Below, in pieces: positions 1-9,331 of a DNA stretch of 64,000 bases (the first letter of the stretch is position 1; each line of letters begins with the position of its first letter). Below the pieces are notes generated by a model that was not told where the DNA came from, did no database searches, and was given only the letters and a program-made list of their open reading frames with translations. Made by a program: the position numbers and the translations under genes. The stretch is from Thermoplasmata archaeon (GTDB taxonomy: Archaea > Thermoplasmatota > Thermoplasmata > Thermoplasmatales > GCA-001856825): positions 256,001 to 320,000 of the forward strand of contig JAJYUZ010000003.1 in assembly GCA_021792255.1 (NCBI GenBank). Reading direction: 5' to 3'.

Positions 1-1
1 C

Positions 2-1000
2 GGGAAAGAAATAGCGACTATTCGCGTGTGGGGTAACAATGTATCGGTTCGTACTGCAGATGAAAATGCTTCCGTTAACGGAACCGCACCAGTGACCCCA
101 AACGGCACTGGCTGGATCCTCATCACTGGCAATCTGTTTAATGAGAGCGGTGGAAACGGATCTGGATGGAAGCTGGAAGTTTTCGTAGACAGGACCATAT
201 CGGTTTTCGCGAACATCAGTGCGCCGGTGGGATATTCGTACAGTGGGCTTGAAATCTCGTGTGTCCGGGGAAGTGTATTTTTCACCGACATAATCTTTTC
301 TAGTTATAACATGGCAGTGTTCCTGCCAGGTTATAACAACATGGAAGGATATGGTCAGGGATCAGGGTTTTTGGTAAATCTCCTGCAGCCATTCACCATT
401 CTTCATGCAGATTTCGTTCTCTACAATTGGTCTGTCGCTAGATACTCAACACTGAGTTTTCAGATAAACGCTATGAATTTGATTGCTGCGGAGAATCAAA
501 CGGCGAAAGGTTTCTTTCAACTAGGAATCGATCTTGACCCCAATGGAAAAATAGCCCCGTGGTACGTTGGAGGAAATAATGCAATCGCGGTCTATTTCAA
601 GAATTACATAGGTCCAGATTTTATGCCCGGGTTTAATACGCCCAGTGGAACTGTTCTGGGGCTCACCATTCAGTACCTCCCTCTAGAAAAGATAATATTT
701 TTCCAGATTGTCGACTACAACAAAACGGGAGAAACCAGGTTTTGTAATGCAAGCGTGTCCTATAGTGGTCCCGAATTTTATGCCGCTTACACGCAGCTTG
801 AGACCACATCCTTGGATGAATCTCAGCTTAACGGTTACCGCTTCAATGGAAGCGTATTCGATATTACGCACGGGTCAGATTTCTCGAGCATGACCCCATT
901 TAATAGCAGCTACATGTTGCCCTTTTCGATTGATACACCGGTCACTTGGTCTCTCACCTATTACAACAATTATGTGTCTGGCTACAATCAGGTTGATTAA
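2..1000 (+). CDS. Secreted/surface hypothetical protein, 5'-truncated by window
   Basis: Frame is open from base 2. Asn/Ser/Thr/Tyr-rich with many NxS/T sequons, typical of acidophile archaeal surface glycoproteins. Confidence 0.6.
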   Translation, partial: GKEIATIRVWGNNVSVRTADENASVNGTAPVTPNGTGWILITGNLFNESGGNGSGWKLEVFVDRTISVFANISAPVGYSYSGLEISCVRGSVFFTDIIFSSYNMAVFLPGYNNMEGYGQGSGFLVNLLQPFTILHADFVLYNWSVARYSTLSFQINAMNLIAAENQTAKGFFQLGIDLDPNGKIAPWYVGGNNAIAVYFKNYIGPDFMPGFNTPSGTVLGLTIQYLPLEKIIFFQIVDYNKTGETRFCNASVSYSGPEFYAAYTQLETTSLDESQLNGYRFNGSVFDITHGSDFSSMTPFNSSYMLPFSIDTPVTWSLTYYNNYVSGYNQVD

Positions 1001-1034
1001 CAGAGCGAAATTCTGAAGGTAAATCGGTCCTCTT

Positions 1035-1661
1035 TTATGCCACTGGACCCTGATTACTCAGTTCCTTCTTGAAATCGCTCATCAGCTCTTTTATATTTAC
1101 GATCTCGTATCTCACCCTCTTGTTAGAGATAGCGTCTCTGACCAGCCTTTCCCTCTTTATGAGACCCGAGCTCTCCCCACTCTTTATTTCCAGAAAAATG
1201 ACCTCCATCTCTTCCGTTTCGTCACTCAGCCCTCTGAAAGCTATGAAATCAACCGGAGTACCCAAGTGTCTGAAATCCTTAAGGTTGACACCAAATCTGT
1301 TTGAAAGAAGTACGGGAGAAAACTCTTCACCTATTTTGCCAAGCAGGGTGTTTATGGACTTTTGAATTGCATCCTCTCTGATCTTTTTCTCTTCCTGTTT
1401 CTTCCAGGACTCAAGCTGTACCTGATAGTCCTTCCTGACCGTGTCATTAATCTGGGTTCTCATAACATTGACGCTGGTTTCGGTCCATTGATTGAAGAGC
1501 TTTTGCGCTAATTCCTGGGCCGATTTTTGTCCTGTCAATCTTTCCCTCTCGATGAGTACTCTCAGTCTCGAGATTCTCCTTTCAAATATGAAACTGATAA
1601 TCAGAATTATTACTGCGGAAACAAGAAGCAGTCCTATTATCAGAGTGTCTGATAATGTCAT
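1035..1661 (-). CDS. Membrane-anchored Holliday-junction-resolvase-like endonuclease (Endonuc_Holl type)
   Basis: N-terminal TM helix, coiled coil, then GKIGEEFSP...FRHLGTPVDFIAF...FLEIKSG PD-(D/E)xK motif. Confidence 0.8.
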   Translation of the reverse strand: MTLSDTLIIGLLLVSAVIILIISFIFERRISRLRVLIERERLTGQKSAQELAQKLFNQWTETSVNVMRTQINDTVRKDYQVQLESWKKQEEKKIREDAIQKSINTLLGKIGEEFSPVLLSNRFGVNLKDFRHLGTPVDFIAFRGLSDETEEMEVIFLEIKSGESSGLIKRERLVRDAISNKRVRYEIVNIKELMSDFKKELSNQGPVA

Positions 1662-1780
1662 CTGAGATTATCATCATCAGACCTAAAAAGATTTAACTAT
1701 AATGCAGCCAAGGGAGGAATTCCTTTGATGACAGGTATCCAGAGATTCCTGACATATCTGTTCTTCAAAAGGCGTGAACG

Positions 1781-2146
1781 TTAAGATGTTACACTGGCCA
1801 TTACTGGCGAAATGTCCATGTATATTCTGTAGTCTTCTATCATATTCTCTCTGTACTTCAGGACACTGACAACTGGAATGGAAATTACTCTCCCATCCTT
1901 CATGGTGTAGTTTGCGACCGCCTCGACAGCATATCCATTTCCTTGCACATAGACCCCCTTGATATCGTGTCTAAGTCCATTTATCTTCGAGAAAAGATAG
2001 TTCAGTCCAGAAATTAATGCATCTCTTCCTGTCCATAGATCATTATTAGAAAATCGAAATTTCACATCGATAGTCATGAGTTCAGAAAATTCAACTGCAT
2101 TCATTTTGTCTGCAGTCCTAAAGACTTCTTCCACATTTTTGGTCAT
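1781..2146 (-). CDS. SnoaL/NTF2-like family protein
   Basis: 121 aa; FRFSN..GRDA, GLRH and C-terminal DYRIYMDISPV typical of SnoaL-like proteins. Confidence 0.7.
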   Translation of the reverse strand: MTKNVEEVFRTADKMNAVEFSELMTIDVKFRFSNNDLWTGRDALISGLNYLFSKINGLRHDIKGVYVQGNGYAVEAVANYTMKDGRVISIPVVSVLKYRENMIEDYRIYMDISPVMASVTS

Positions 2147-2244
2147 ATTTCCGATATCGCGATGGTGACTAAATTAGTTTCTTTTCCACACAATCACCTA
2201 CCGTACATCGACTCTGTACAACTTTACCGCCATCCGACCTGTTT

Positions 2245-2610
2245 TCACTTCGTTGCAATGACATCTATTTCCACCAAAATATCGTTGTTTGCAAATCCCG
2301 ATACTATTGTTGTTCTTGCAGGTGGGTCCGTCGCGAAGTACCTAGAATAAAGTTCGTTCATTTTCTGAAAGTCTTCACTCTTGGAGAGTTGGACTGTCAC
2401 CTTGACCACGTTCTTCAGAGTAAGTTCTCCGATCTCAAGGATTTTTGCACCTTCACCATTTCATTTCCAAACTGTTCCTCAAGGTTTGCGGCCCTGTTAG
2501 ATACCATACTACCTGTCCTGAGAGATACATAAAATTACCAGTGGCTACCGCATGGAAATAAGGTCCTGCATTGGCGATGTCTGAAACATTTATGTTTATG
2601 CATACCCATA
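2245..2610 (-). pseudogene. ridA: Frameshifted RidA/YjgF/UK114 family gene
   Basis: Minus-strand fragments in different frames: INVSDIANAGPYFHAVATGNFMYLSGQV and LKNVVKVTVQLS..FQKMNELYSRYFATDPPARTTIV..ILVEIDVIATK*. No single ORF spans both. Confidence 0.8.
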
Positions 2611-2774
2611 AGTCAGGTCCCGAAATTTAAGATTTTATTGATTTTGATATTTCTGTTTTCAATCGAGATTTTTTGACAGGAGTTTCTCGACAATTGTTAC
2701 GTCCTTCCATTCTCCATCAAGTTTACCGTGTTTTTAGTAGGTTCCAACTTCCCTGAATCCGACTTTCCTGAGAA

Positions 2775-3074
2775 GTGAACGACTTGCTGCATTTTCTACA
2801 AAGACTCTGGAAACAAGCTTCCACGGAACAGCCCAAGAATCAACCTGCACAGCAGAAACCAGTCCAGCCTCAGGGTGGCTGGAAATCCGAGGTTCTTAGG
2901 CTTCTCAACGAGTTCCCGCAGAATCTTGAGAGGAAATCGCAGTCCAAGATCCAGATTGTGAGGGAGATTCCAAGAAGCGACTGGAACATTGTGAAGAAAG
3001 GTTTTGAGAAGGAAGGGTGGATATACGACTGGAAGGAGAAGGCCTTCTTGATCTCCGAGGAGATGAAGGCATGA
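2775..3074 (+). CDS. Virus-like hypothetical protein (probably a C-terminal fragment)
   Basis: Q/P linker followed by compact domain ending GWIYDWKEKAF. Stop overlaps next ATG (ATGA 3071-3074). N-terminus looks non-coding. Confidence 0.55.
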   Translation: MNDLLHFLQRLWKQASTEQPKNQPAQQKPVQPQGGWKSEVLRLLNEFPQNLERKSQSKIQIVREIPRSDWNIVKKGFEKEGWIYDWKEKAFLISEEMKA

Positions 3075-3661
3075 CAGAAGAAAATGAGACTGCAGCCACT
3101 TCAGGTATTTACTATCAAATATGCCAAGAACGCCAAGATGAATGGAACGGCAATGAACTTCCATCTCCTTATCAGTCTGGCCCTAATGTAGAGGAGGATA
3201 AGGATGAAGTAAAGTCCAATGCAGGCGAAGAAACAAGGGACCGAGTACTTTATGTAAAAGAGAATCCAAGTATAGAAAGAGGGGTAGATGAAAAAGAAAA
3301 TGATGGGAAGCAACACGAGGATGAAGAAGTAGCCTGCAACGATCAAAGAGAAGGGCTGGAATCGGTTGCTCCCGACAAATTTAGCCCACCCTCTGCCCGG
3401 CTTCACCAGAAGTCCAAGGTAGCCAATGACGAGACCGGTAATGAGGATGTAAAGAATCTCAATCCAGTTGCTGATAAATTCACTAGACATTTAAGGAATA
3501 CCTTGGCAATATCATTTACAGCAGGTATAATAATTTCTTCGCTACTATCCACTCTCAGCTTCGATCTGGCCTTTATTGCTCTAGCTTCCGCTCTTGGCTT
3601 ATCTGGTGGACTGATTCTTTCGGAAGTCCTGTTTCTTGAAATAATGGAGGAAAAGGCATGA
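3071..3661 (+). CDS. Acidic protein with C-terminal TM helices (element gene)
   Basis: SD and ATGA coupling at both ends (3071, 3658). Start reassigned from 3017. Confidence 0.5.
   Translation: MTEENETAATSGIYYQICQERQDEWNGNELPSPYQSGPNVEEDKDEVKSNAGEETRDRVLYVKENPSIERGVDEKENDGKQHEDEEVACNDQREGLESVAPDKFSPPSARLHQKSKVANDETGNEDVKNLNPVADKFTRHLRNTLAISFTAGIIISSLLSTLSFDLAFIALASALGLSGGLILSEVLFLEIMEEKA
3101..3490 (-). CDS. Small multi-pass membrane protein, nested antisense
   Basis: 129 aa with about 4 hydrophobic segments and basic loops, entirely inside 3071-3661 on the opposite strand. Confidence 0.6.
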   Translation of the reverse strand: MSSEFISNWIEILYILITGLVIGYLGLLVKPGRGWAKFVGSNRFQPFSLIVAGYFFILVLLPIIFFFIYPSFYTWILFYIKYSVPCFFACIGLYFILILLYIRARLIRRWKFIAVPFILAFLAYLIVNT

Positions 3662-4275
3662 CACTCGAATCAGAAATCATTGAAATTTTCAGGACAAACA
3701 ACCTGAGGCATCTGAGCGCAGTTGTCACTTCTGACGGGCTGATCAAGGTCTCGATACAGGAGAGGAAACCTCCCAGAGTCAAGGGATTCGATCCGGCAGC
3801 ATACTATAGAAACAACAAGGAAAAAATCAAGAAGTACCAGCACGAGTATTATCTGAGGAAGAGAGGGAAGAACCAGAAGACAAGTATTGTCTCCGGAGGG
3901 ACTTATGTTCCGACTCCTGAAGATCTTGCTAAGGCAATGGCATCTCTCTATTCTAAAGATGGAACTGCTCTCAAGGCAGATGAACTCAGGGACACAGCTC
4001 TGCATGTGATGCAGTTCTTTGGGTTCGAGAGGGAGGTCGTTGGAAATCATCTGGAACCGGACGAGATATCGCTGATGTACCAGCTTGAGGACATCGGGCT
4101 GATAAGCACGAGAATAGAGGAACACAATCTCCTGGATGGGAAACCCTGGAGGGTCAACTACTTCATTCTCAATGTTGGGAAGATCAGGGAATATTCCTCA
4201 AAGACAATTGAAGGAAATTCAGCTGATGCGTGCCAGGTCTACGAGAATCTTCCAGAGGAGATGTGGGCGAGATGA
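3658..4275 (+). CDS. Element-encoded DUF6015-like protein with basic N-terminal extension
   Basis: C-terminal half aligns by eye with 19079-19432 (FFGFE..V.N.L...Y.LE..G..ST..E...L..GK.WR). N-terminus carries YYRNNKEKIKKYQHEYY. Confidence 0.75.
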   Translation: MTLESEIIEIFRTNNLRHLSAVVTSDGLIKVSIQERKPPRVKGFDPAAYYRNNKEKIKKYQHEYYLRKRGKNQKTSIVSGGTYVPTPEDLAKAMASLYSKDGTALKADELRDTALHVMQFFGFEREVVGNHLEPDEISLMYQLEDIGLISTRIEEHNLLDGKPWRVNYFILNVGKIREYSSKTIEGNSADACQVYENLPEEMWAR

Positions 4276-4436
4276 AGTATTTTTATTCAGATGCGTGCAC
4301 CCACAACCAGCACCCAATCTGCAAGGAGCAGGAATGCCAGTGCGGATGTCACTTCATTGCAAGAAACAACGGAATTACCCCGGAGGAGTGGAAATCCTAC
4401 CAGGCCAGGGTCGCGAAAGCGGAGGAATCGCTATGA
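4272..4436 (+). CDS. Small Cys/His-rich (Zn-binding) element protein
   Basis: MKYFYSDACTHNQHPICKEQECQCGCH; ATGA overlaps at both ends. Confidence 0.65.
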   Translation: MKYFYSDACTHNQHPICKEQECQCGCHFIARNNGITPEEWKSYQARVAKAEESL

Positions 4437-4732
4437 GGTACAATTGCTCCCTTGACTTCGGGGCTCTGGAAATAGACGGGATCGAGGCAAACAGTAGGGA
4501 GGAAGCCAGGGAAATAGCTATGAGGTCCTTCAAGCCGGTGATCCTCGCCATTGATGAAACAAGCATCAAGGCAACTGCAGGAGAAAGGAAGAGAAGACCG
4601 ATAATAGTCACTGGCCCAAGCACACTTGAGCCTGCCAAAAGGAAGGAATCTTCCAAAGAGATTTTTGAACGCAGGGTCAAGCGTTGCAGGTTGGTTGCAA
4701 AGAATGCTGAGCTGGAGACGGGAGTGAGGTGA
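4433..4732 (+). CDS. Virus-like hypothetical protein
   Basis: GGAGG SD and ATGA start at 4433; EANSREEAREIA resembles motifs in small phage proteins. The extension to 4136 is shadow. Confidence 0.6.
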   Translation: MRYNCSLDFGALEIDGIEANSREEAREIAMRSFKPVILAIDETSIKATAGERKRRPIIVTGPSTLEPAKRKESSKEIFERRVKRCRLVAKNAELETGVR

Positions 4733-4736
4733 GACA

Positions 4737-4850
4737 ATGAGCATGGAGAGCATTTTTCCATTTATCAAGAAAGAGGCAGACGACCGGATCGACGGGGAGC
4801 CAAACCTGCTGAGGTCACTGCTCAGGGTTATGGAGAGGGATGAGAGATGA
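4737..4850 (+). CDS. 37-aa ORF coupled to integrase
   Basis: GAGGTGA SD; MSMESIFPFIKKEADDRIDGEPNLLRSLLRVMERDER*; stop overlaps integrase ATG. Not in ORF track. Confidence 0.5.
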   Translation: MSMESIFPFIKKEADDRIDGEPNLLRSLLRVMERDER

Positions 4851-5815
4851 ACGGAGACCTAGGGATAAAATTGGAGGAGTACCGGATCTGGGCCTTAACG
4901 TTGGGACGCTACTCATCGTCGACCGTAACAAGGTCCGTGAGGAGGATAAGGGAGCTCTCGAAGGCGATCGACGTCCTGAGACCGACGCAGAAGCAGGTCC
5001 TTGACTTCTTTGCAAGGGAGGCAGAGAAGGGGATGAAGCCCCATACCATGAACAACCAGAGGAAGGACCTCGCGTCCTGGTTCAGGTTCCTGGGAATAAA
5101 GATACAGCTCCCCGTTTTCAAGGAGCCTCCTCTCCCGGATCCATGGATACCCACGGACGATGAGGTGAAGAAGGTGCTTGCTGCGGCGGAGAGGTCGGGG
5201 GACAGGATGAGTTCCGCTAGGAACAAGGTTATGGTCGAGCTGCTCTTCTTCGGGGGGATAAGGATAGGCGAACTGATCAAGATAAACCTCACCGACCTCA
5301 GGTCCAACGGAATAAGGATAAGGAGCGAGAAGGGCGAGGCCGAGAGGATCATAGGACTGCCCGGGAGCATCATGGAGGAAATAGCGGAGTTCGTGAGATA
5401 CTACAGGTACAACAGCGACCCTGCCGCATTCTTCACCACCAGGGATGGCAGGATGAGCTATTACTATGCCAGGAACATCCTGAGCCGAATCGGTGCAAGG
5501 GCAGGGGTTCCGAGGTTCCATGCCCATGCTGCAAGGCACTGGTGCGCCACTGCGCTCCTGAGGGGGATTTTCGGCCAAAAACCCCTGGACATCCGCATGG
5601 TCCAAATCCATCTGGGCCACAGATCCCTGAGGACCACCCAGAGGTATACTCACGTAACCCAGGAGGAAGTTGCGGAACAGGTAAGGGGGAGGCTCGCGGA
5701 CTTTTTTCGAGTCGATGAAGAAATGAATTTAGGCACGATGAAAGTCGAATCCGAACCAGAACCAAGTGGGGCTGCCCGGATTTGGACCGGGGTCACAGAC
5801 TCCCAAAGCCCGTAG
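4847..5815 (+). CDS. int: Tyrosine recombinase/integrase
   Basis: Catalytic set: GIRIGEL (R), SEKG (K), HAARH (HxxR), LGH, TQRY (Y). The last 16 codons lie antisense in tRNA-Pro. Confidence 0.93.
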   Translation: MNGDLGIKLEEYRIWALTLGRYSSSTVTRSVRRIRELSKAIDVLRPTQKQVLDFFAREAEKGMKPHTMNNQRKDLASWFRFLGIKIQLPVFKEPPLPDPWIPTDDEVKKVLAAAERSGDRMSSARNKVMVELLFFGGIRIGELIKINLTDLRSNGIRIRSEKGEAERIIGLPGSIMEEIAEFVRYYRYNSDPAAFFTTRDGRMSYYYARNILSRIGARAGVPRFHAHAARHWCATALLRGIFGQKPLDIRMVQIHLGHRSLRTTQRYTHVTQEEVAEQVRGRLADFFRVDEEMNLGTMKVESEPEPSGAARIWTGVTDSQSP

Positions 5816-5839
5816 GATACCAAGCTACCCCACAGCCCC
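5767..5839 (-). tRNA. tRNA-Pro(UGG)
   Basis: GGGGCTG/CAGCCCC acceptor stem, loop TTTGGGA. T-loop reads TCCAAAT instead of TTCAAAT; two G-U pairs in anticodon stem. Confidence 0.9.
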
Positions 5840-5882
5840 TTCCGACCTTATTTTCATTCGGTTTATATTCCTTTCCACGGGA

Positions 5883-6443
5883 TCAGTTTTTCATTTTCTT
5901 TTTTATTATTCTTGATATATTGTCCAGTACCTCTTTCCTTCCCCGATCCGCATTTACTTCAATACCAAAATTGAATTCTGTTGATTTCTTGTGTACCATT
6001 CTCGTTTCGTTTTCTCCAAGAGAGCTCCTCCTGGAAGCATCTCTTCGCATGCACACTTCCAGAGGGACCGCGAGTGTTATCACTATGCCCTCAAACTCTT
6101 TCAGCCGCCCAATCAAATCAAGAATAACACTCTTGTAATAGAAATTTCCGTCAAAAATTACGGGCAATCCGTTTTCAAGTTGCATCATTGATTCCTTCGC
6201 CGCAATTTCATTAACTCTCAAGAAACTCATTTCCGAAATATAGCCATCTTCCCATTCTTCGAGATTGAATTTTTCAAGAATTTCATCTATAGAGATGTGG
6301 TGAGCATTGTAATCTCTGGCTAATTCCTTGGAGATTGTTGTTTTCCCAGCCCCCAAAGGACCTCTGATTATGACGAAGAATGCTTGATGCACCTTTTCAC
6401 TACCTTGATTAATTCCTTTTAGTGCCACAACTTTCCCAGCCAT
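5883..6443 (-). CDS. P-loop nucleoside/small-molecule kinase (AAA_33-like)
   Basis: Walker A GPLGAGKTT; VIFDG; lid motif CMRRDASR. Confidence 0.75.
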   Translation of the reverse strand: MAGKVVALKGINQGSEKVHQAFFVIIRGPLGAGKTTISKELARDYNAHHISIDEILEKFNLEEWEDGYISEMSFLRVNEIAAKESMMQLENGLPVIFDGNFYYKSVILDLIGRLKEFEGIVITLAVPLEVCMRRDASRRSSLGENETRMVHKKSTEFNFGIEVNADRGRKEVLDNISRIIKKKMKN

Positions 6444-8496: not shown

Positions 8497-9099
8497 TTAC
8501 TTGAGCAACCTAGCTCTGACAAGAGACCTCAGCGGAACTCCGTCGATTTCGTCCTTTACCGTTTTGTTCGTTAGAACCACGACAAGTATTGGGTTTCCTT
8601 TCTCCTTCTTTACTGCGCTCAGTGCTTTGGAAATTGTTTCCCCAGTGCTCACAACATCATCGACCAGCACGACGTTCTTTCCGGAGATATCGGCGTAGTT
8701 ACTAGAAAATGTTCCCTCTCCCTTTGTGGTTATTGATCGGTAAATTCCGAGTTCCGTTCCGAGAATGTCAGAAAGGAAGGTTGCATAGGGTATTCCATTG
8801 ATCGTTATACCGACAATAGTGTCTATTTCCTTCTCCAGTCTCTGAGTTTCTTCCTCAATTATATCTGCCATTATTTCGGCAATATTGTAGATTCTGTTTG
8901 AATAGACCCCGATGCTTCTCCACCCTATCTTGACATCCCCGGGAGCCTTCTCAATCTTCGATTCGCCGCTGAGCAACCAAATTATGGTATTAACGGAAAG
9001 GTGCATCTCGGTAGCAATATCTTTGTCATTCATCCCTTTCTGCTTGAGTTGTTTTGCAGACTCTGCTAGTTCTTCGATACTCTTCATATTTATCACCAT
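8497..9099 (-). CDS. Orotate-phosphoribosyltransferase-like HTH regulator (GfcR-type)
   Basis: N-terminal HTH (DIATEMHLS..TIIWLL) plus PRT motif VVLVDDVVSTG. Confidence 0.85.
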   Translation of the reverse strand: MVINMKSIEELAESAKQLKQKGMNDKDIATEMHLSVNTIIWLLSGESKIEKAPGDVKIGWRSIGVYSNRIYNIAEIMADIIEEETQRLEKEIDTIVGITINGIPYATFLSDILGTELGIYRSITTKGEGTFSSNYADISGKNVVLVDDVVSTGETISKALSAVKKEKGNPILVVVLTNKTVKDEIDGVPLRSLVRARLLK

Positions 9100-9157
9100 T
9101 CAGCACTCATAGGGGTCATCACAGCCTTAGCTCAGCTGACCCTTATATCATCACACA
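9098..9157 (-). ncRNA. Box C/D-type sRNA
   Basis: Minus strand: C GTGATGA (9154-9148), 12 nt, D' CTGA (9135-9132), C' GTGATGA (9122-9116), 12 nt, D CTGA (9103-9100). TATA-like TTTATATT about 25 nt upstream. Confidence 0.85.
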
Positions 9158-9331
9158 TTCCAATATGTATTAAGAATATAAACTCTTTTTTGGGGATGAA
9201 TCACTAAGAGCCTTGCTTTTGGCATCTGTATTGCGCTCTAATTCAATTTATAGCCGTAGAGGAGGTGAGGGATGTACAGTGCTTATGCACTATGGCACAC
9301 AGCTAAAATATCAGCAGGTGATGTTCAGAGC

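Follow-up and report, generated by a model that had tools for sequence, protein, structure and literature searches.

An integrase gene running antisense into a C55 tRNA-Pro(UGG) gene in a Thermoplasmatales genome, probably the remnant of an integrative element

The stretch of DNA that was analysed, referred to here as the window, comprises 64,000 nt of a Thermoplasmata genome (G000; 11 contigs, 1.59 Mb) in which 45 tRNAs are predicted. Near its left end a tyrosine integrase ORF on the plus strand, preceded by several small co-oriented ORFs, runs into and terminates within a tRNA-Pro(UGG) gene encoded on the minus strand. The features considered below are as follows.

2775-3074, 3017-3661, 3658-4275, 4230-4436, 4433-4732 and 4737-4850, plus strand: small ORFs upstream of the integrase gene (int) and co-oriented with it
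2810-5766, plus strand: inserted DNA of ~3 kb, probably an integrative-element remnant (synteny break, GC, Pfam/PHROGs; left limit approximate)
4847-5815, plus strand: tyrosine integrase ORF, 322 aa (ORF call, PF00589, alignment, AlphaFold2)
5767-5782, no strand assigned: putative attachment (att) core (by homology with two two-ended relatives only)
5767-5839, minus strand: tRNA-Pro(UGG) (ARAGORN and Rfam RF00005; left limit 5766 or 5767)
5783-5785, plus strand: TGG codon (W313), the complement of tRNA positions 57-55, which would be TGA if position 55 were U

The tRNA gene was recovered with Rfam RF00005 at 51.8 bits (gathering score 29, E 6.1e-09), and ARAGORN predicted no other proline tRNA with a UGG anticodon in the genome. 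Position 55 is U in nearly all tRNAs; the conserved T-loop of elongator tRNAs contains U54-U55-C56, and its canonical sequence is given as UUCAAAU. Although the cloverleaf of tRNA-Pro(UGG) is intact according to both ARAGORN and Rfam, its T-arm reads CCCGG-UCCAAAU-CCGGG, which places C rather than U at position 55 (window base 5785 being the complement of C55). A first-pass annotation of this DNA had already described the T-loop as non-canonical and the anticodon stem as containing two G-U pairs, and both descriptions hold. The pairs are G28-U42, common to all 29 related tRNA-Pro(UGG) genes that were compared, and G30-U40; U40 occurs in nine of these relatives, including two that lack the integrase. 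An assembly error at base 55, which the same annotation had raised as a possibility, was ruled out, since an identical tRNA gene is present in four independent assemblies (L006, L007, L008 and L014) and since the contigs of four public sequencing runs from three studies, when aligned to the window, show no alternative letter at a frequency of 10% or more anywhere within 5657-5839.

The integrase ORF begins with a start codon that overlaps the stop codon of the preceding ORF (ATGA, 4847-4850) and ends in the sequence ...SGAARIWTGVTDSQSP*. Its assignment is supported by Pfam (PF00589, 92.9 bits against a cutoff of 27.1, over residues 103-273) and by PHROGs (phrog_1 integrase, E 8.8e-35). In an alignment of 36 sequences R139, H227, R230, H258 and Y267 are invariant and K162 is present in at least 90%; judging by position, these residues presumably fill the catalytic roles R, K, H-x-x-R, H/W and Y. 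The full domain and the alignment thus bear out the earlier statement that every catalytic residue is kept in the integrated form of the gene. The last 16 codons, S307 to P322, and the TAG stop fall antisense within the 3′ part of the tRNA gene, and W313 is specified by the TGG codon that a canonical T-loop would convert to a TGA stop; here, too, the first-pass reading was correct. By themselves, the 10 additional stop-free codons are not beyond chance. The AlphaFold2 model, computed from the family alignment, has a mean pLDDT of 83.9, its last helix spans residues 272-288, and pLDDT falls below 50 for residues 290-322, a segment predicted to be disordered. In the model the part encoded by the tRNA comes after both the complete catalytic domain and the last helix; most likely it is a disordered extension with no function.

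The DNA to the left of the tRNA appears to have been inserted. Synteny with three integrase-free relatives breaks near window position 2593 and picks up again at the tRNA, and the distance between the neighbouring host gene and the tRNA is 246 nt in relative G013 and 274 nt in relative G011, as against ~3.2 kb in the window. GC content is raised across 4000-5800. ORF 3658-4275 matches DUF6015, and the other five small ORFs have no match in Pfam or PHROGs. In relatives from the same genus the corresponding position beside this tRNA is occupied by a full integrase gene (80% identity), by C-terminal halves, by frameshifted copies or by 36-aa stubs, a series that, as far as can be read from the sequences, points to repeated integration followed by decay from the distal side.

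Several minor features were observed in and around the inserted DNA. In three runs the summed contig depth of two segments, 2770-2923 and 4002-4309, is several-fold above that of adjacent sequence; these parts of the insertion seem to be present in further contexts or variants within the same communities. One contig joint skips 4173-4284 inside the insertion. To its left, a RidA-like (Ribonuc_L-PSP) host gene at 2245-2626 on the minus strand is open only in two differing frames, where relatives have a single intact ORF; either the gene has become a frameshifted pseudogene or the assembly is in error here. Short open stretches on the minus strand at ~2640-2895, broken across frames and similar by eye to the C-terminal end of an acetyltransferase, may mark a deleted left edge of the element.

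The first-pass annotation had proposed that the element contributed the 3′ half of the tRNA, C55 included, under selection for an int frame open across attP, and that the host pays for this with a tRNA lacking U55. C55 does abolish a TGA in the int frame, and all 10 of the relatives with an integrase match at tRNA-Pro(UGG) carry it. The distribution of C55 in the genome, in related genomes and in the class speaks against this proposal. Within the window's genome a T-loop beginning UCC was found in 8 of the 45 predicted tRNAs (Glu-CUC, Glu-UUC, Gly-UCC, Gly-CCC, Thr-CGU, Thr-GGU, Ile-GAU and Pro-UGG), and a genome-wide tblastn search placed no integrase relative beside any of the seven others. 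The matches that this search did return lie at tRNA-Pro(UGG), at tRNA-Gly(GCC), whose T-loop is canonical, and at two further places, both weak (25-27% identity). Among 121 genomes sampled from the class, a C55 T-arm motif, CGGGTCCRAATCCCG, was detected in 33, with no hits for a reversed control; it is clustered by family, being present for example in 9/9 and 11/11 genomes of two families and not found in many others. As a separate observation, the Thr-UGU tRNA of the window's genome carries C54.

The orthologous tRNA was then compared across relatives. Of 60 related genomes searched, 59 gave a match, and the tRNA-Pro(UGG) locus was taken from 29. Base 55 is C in 21 of these and T in eight; by tblastn, an integrase match reaching past the tRNA-coded tail accompanies the tRNA in 10 of the 21 and is lacking in the other 11, and none of the eight T55 relatives has an integrase match at this tRNA. 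This association between C55 and the integrase is confounded by phylogeny. To the 3′ side of the tRNA at 10 of the 11 integrase-free C55 loci, 26 stop-to-stop ORFs of at least 90 aa were searched with Pfam; PF00589 was absent from them, and the matches were to RidA-like, SnoaL-like, Holliday-junction-resolvase-like, radical SAM, short-chain dehydrogenase and similar housekeeping families. The flank of the eleventh locus is only 149 nt long. Whereas the first-pass annotation expected T55 in element-free relatives, and took C55 there as evidence against its own proposal, C55 is what these 11 relatives carry, and with C55 present in eight tRNAs of the genome and in most of the orthologues, neither selection to hold int open nor a special cost to this host is borne out.

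The other bases in which the window's tRNA-Pro(UGG) differs from the commonest form, U40 and U44, were considered as element-derived variants and rejected: they track the host lineage, and relatives G013 and G017, which have no integrase gene, possess a tRNA identical to that of the window, U40 and U44 included. G013 is nevertheless not a naive site. Some 20-30 nt adjoining its tRNA translate like an integrase tail (ESLIAPH-GAARIW, a short tblastn match), and integration followed by excision may have taken place earlier at this hot spot in close relatives. Some of the seemingly empty tRNA-Pro(UGG) sites are scars, the tRNA being an integration hot spot.

The share of the tRNA that an element could contribute was delimited with two family members that retain both ends. 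One, of ~10 kb, occupies the same tRNA in Thermogymnomonas acidicola; direct repeats of 16 nt border it, and their identity ends at ...GGATT, which is T-loop position 58. The host tRNA there has T55, and translation in the int frame gives GAARI* across the tRNA junction and GAARI-PYDLTESLRGVFA* across the other. The second is located in the window's own genome on contig C11, where an integrase of 305 aa (109240-110157), 43% identical to that of the window, terminates as ...ASAGI*, its stop being the TGA in the T-loop of tRNA-Gly(GCC). Its 16-nt direct repeats are 2.2 kb apart and end at T-loop position 59, and the other junction reads ASAGI-YAFLCKSQEALA*. This mini-element (G000:C11:107977-110211, outside the window) adjoins tRNA-Gly(GCC) with both ends kept. 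In both elements the 16-nt core overlaps the last int codons and int is intact. Because the repeats stop at position 58 or 59, the crossover leaves base 55 on the host side. Carried over by homology to the window's copy, these limits would make 5767-5782 the most that the element could have supplied, corresponding to tRNA positions 73-58 (the discriminator, the 3′ strands of the acceptor and T-stems and three T-loop bases).

Counterparts of this core were sought more widely. No second copy of the 3′ part of the tRNA was found in the window (45-nt pattern, up to three mismatches) or in the genome (86-nt BLAST), and a genome-wide 12-mer search for copies of either this part or the core yielded nothing convincing; one 13-nt match, 138 kb away at C7:123129, was attributed to chance. 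For a left copy of the core, window positions 1-5700 contain no match of 12 or more of its 16 bases (hits of at least 11/16 were examined) and no P′-arm-like motif. With no left repeat, the window's copy is best read as a remnant, probably immobile, whose left end (attL and adjacent genes) has been lost; such a loss would probably make excision impossible. No attP form of a close relative (>70% identity) was found: nine integrase loci in viral contigs are all merely 24-36% identical, and the 80 loci kept from metagenome contigs, at 27-39% identity, are too distant to represent close-relative attP forms.

The wider family is consistent with the limits set by the two-ended elements. The family set consists of 77 integrase relatives (E <= 1e-34), and those with names belong to Thermogymnomonas, Ferroplasma, Thermoplasmataceae and other Thermoplasmata, with two hits in metagenome-assembled genomes labelled Micrarchaeaceae and Nitrososphaerota. 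In 25 of the 77 the protein terminates at G-x-x-[REG]-[IV], as predicted from a T-loop TGA, and T55-host members that stop there keep the full catalytic domain. Eighteen terminate GAARIWTGV(S/T)(D/G)SQSP, the product of a tRNA-Pro(UGG) with C55, and two each run on into tRNA-Ile(GAU) (C55) and tRNA-Met (G57). By eye, the remaining 30 comprise ~15 with non-tRNA tails from the same point, ~9 that read a tRNA in another frame and six that are truncated. From their sequences, the non-tRNA tails would correspond to attP-type or hybrid junctions, and the attP-type tails diverge directly after GAARI, before position 57. The int ORF ends within a predicted opposite-strand tRNA at 24 of 45 genome loci examined, the targets being Pro-UGG, Pro-GGG, Met, Ile-GAU and Gly-CCC. 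One of the loci, L058, forms a tandem on one contig with another element of the same tRNA, L056, with L058 ~35 kb upstream, while at L059, L065 and L070 the sequence runs on into more element genes.

These observations are best accommodated if the window holds the remnant of an element of this Thermoplasmatales family at the 3′ end of tRNA-Pro(UGG) and if C55 is a trait of the host lineage's tRNAs, neither brought nor selected for by the element; to this explanation we assign a probability of about 0.85. A small integrative element would have inserted at the 3′ end of the host tRNA gene, with its int gene ending atop an attachment core that matches the last ~16 bases of the tRNA gene. Since int ends on that core, its frame after integration would enter the host tRNA, passing from element DNA through the shared core to the first stop encountered. 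A canonical T-loop (UUCAAAU) provides that stop, as the TGA from positions 57-55; in tRNAs that lack this TGA, by virtue of C55 or G57, the frame extends 10 to 20 codons more. Given seven C55 tRNAs without an adjacent integrase relative, C55 in 11 relatives without an integrase match past the tail (10 of them also without the domain in flanking ORFs), a motif spread over several families of the class, att repeats that end before base 55, attP-type tails that part from the tRNA before position 57 and T55 hosts whose integrases are complete, an element-supplied and selected C55 is highly improbable.

The first-pass annotation also held that excised and integrated forms encode integrases with different C-termini, and that this constitutes a recombination-controlled protein switch. 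The first part stands at the level of the family: the junction readings of T. acidicola and C11 differ as described, and the C-terminal difference between recombination states is real. The difference looks incidental, and the switch itself finds no support, the tails being short, unconserved in both sequence and length across the family, and predicted to be disordered. At attP-type junctions in relatives the int frame reads on into element sequence, and none of 15 whole-contig loci bears the terminal direct repeat of a circular form. The proposed analogue was mycobacteriophage BPs, in which integration reportedly strips a degradation tag from the repressor, with a regulatory role said to be demonstrated. 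In both systems integration alters the C-terminus of an element-encoded protein through an attP located in its gene; the altered protein there is a repressor, whereas here it is the integrase, with unconserved tails that are predicted to be disordered.

Directly beyond the core, a small ORF of 48-68 aa begins at or just before the stop of the int frame in 5 of 5 attP-type or attL junctions.

L058:10995-11153: small post-core ORF
L065:11011-11163: small post-core ORF
L070:7166-7324: small post-core ORF
L054:916-1122: small post-core ORF (attL)
G000:C11:108028-108174: small post-core ORF (attL)

Four of the five look mutually related by eye. Against Pfam they give only sub-threshold matches, one of them to a MerR DNA-binding domain (19.7 bits, cutoff 25.4), and the small ORF may encode an excisionase or regulator. 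The overlap of int with attP could on this basis be construed as a sensor of integration. Free Int would carry an element-coded tail of 12-25 aa and be translationally coupled, through a stop overlapping the next start, to a small DNA-binding and possibly excisionase-like gene; integration would replace the tail, end the frame at the host T-loop stop and uncouple the two genes, biasing the direction or expression of recombination. If so, the difference between free and integrated Int may help to set the direction of recombination without classical separate control. The family-wide difference between tails at integrated and attP-type junctions fits such a scheme, as does a comparable coding sequence spanning attP in excerpts of a study of haloarchaeal pleolipoviruses (PMC7911831). 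Nevertheless, tails without conserved sequence or length in a region predicted to be disordered, subfamilies that read the tRNA in a different frame, integrated tails whose length (0, 10 or ~20 residues) is set solely by the host T-loop, and the lack of circular forms among the 15 loci all argue against it, and we consider it quite unlikely, both as a sensor and in its specific form of a coupled pair of genes.

The state of the window's own element was considered separately. Its int ORF is unbroken and has every catalytic residue, whereas the copies in relatives decay, which is unexpected for a pure relic and, to judge from the sequence, leaves some room for activity. The element might accordingly be complete and very small, its left att site diverged or located elsewhere, and its integrase active, possibly in trans. 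The overlap of the int start with the upstream stop and the six co-oriented ORFs ahead of it would suit a compact functional unit, and the C11 element, 2.2 kb between two repeats, is an example of such a size in the same genome. The left part of the window lacks a core match and a P′-arm-like motif, as noted above; the insertion contains no replication gene match, unlike L070 with its MCM helicase, and nothing resembling the small post-attP gene is seen among its listed ORFs; the same locus decays stepwise in relatives; and in four runs no contig joins across the insertion, a weak point and no evidence of immobility, given that rare forms drop out of contigs. A complete element is thus unlikely, and the remnant remains the preferred description.

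Archaeal integrases are divided into two types in passages of PMC7253208 retrieved by keyword. The 'suicidal' type I (SSV) has its attP within int, which integration cuts into two inactive fragments; type II (pNOB8), which follows the lambda Int paradigm, has an unbroken int gene and an attP apart from it. Archaeal integrases are described as preferring tRNA 3′ ends as targets in keyword-retrieved parts of PMC8371274, where Thermoplasma appears solely in connection with XerA. The window's family resembles the pNOB8 type in that a tyrosine recombinase targeting a tRNA 3′ end leaves a whole, catalytically complete gene (322 aa in the window) after integration and in that tandem integrations occur, here L058/L056; it differs in that attP is not separate from int, the att core lying inside the last int codons with a tail that varies with recombination state. 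With the SSV type it shares a tRNA gene target and an att site translated within the int frame, as G-A-A-R-I, at the extreme 3′ end of the ORF; it differs in that int is not split, only a disordered tail of ~10-25 residues past the last helix being exchanged while the enzyme stays intact. Having one defining feature of each type and lacking the other, the family is intermediate between them.

The nearest described architecture found is that of haloarchaeal pleolipovirus-like proviruses, where, in the excerpts of Genes 2021;12:149 (PMC7911831), a CDS spans attP between int and the next co-oriented gene. Common to both are a coding sequence across attP that is broken by integration and a tight packing in which co-transcription is likely. 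In the proviruses the spanning sequence is a separate CDS starting near the end of int, as opposed to the int ORF itself, and the downstream gene encodes a CxxC protein rather than the 48-68 aa product with a sub-threshold DNA-binding match. A family with attP inside the ORF and an unbroken enzyme was not mentioned in the keyword-matched passages of PMC7253208 and PMC8371274. Keyword searches of an open-access subset of the literature likewise returned no description of the Thermoplasmatales integrase family, a result that speaks for that subset and not for print as a whole, and nothing evident on C55 in Thermoplasmata.

Taken alone, what the window shows is an unremarkable integrase remnant at a tRNA integration hot spot, of little wider import. 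Of specialist interest are the in-between integrase family and the sizeable fraction of C55 tRNAs in several Thermoplasmata families. Such tRNAs would be unable to carry pseudouridine 55, and bear on T-loop/D-loop pairing and on pseudouridine-55 enzymes in these families.

Three further features were observed in the window and its genome. An ARAGORN call of a 90-nt 'tRNA-SeC(tca)' at G000:C9:21881-21970 may represent an intron-containing tRNA or a mis-call. At 9098-9158 on the minus strand, a C/D-box sRNA-like sequence matches Rfam sR3 at 29 bits, below the gathering score of 41, and its C, D′, C′ and D boxes are clear in the alignment. Located 5′ of the tRNA, an ORF of 186 aa (5883-6443, minus strand) resembles P-loop kinases (AAA_33); it is missing from community contigs, which join 5879 to 6438 in 3 of 4 runs, and from relatives, whose alignments skip 5879-6437, and represents a variable insert at the opposite flank of the tRNA.
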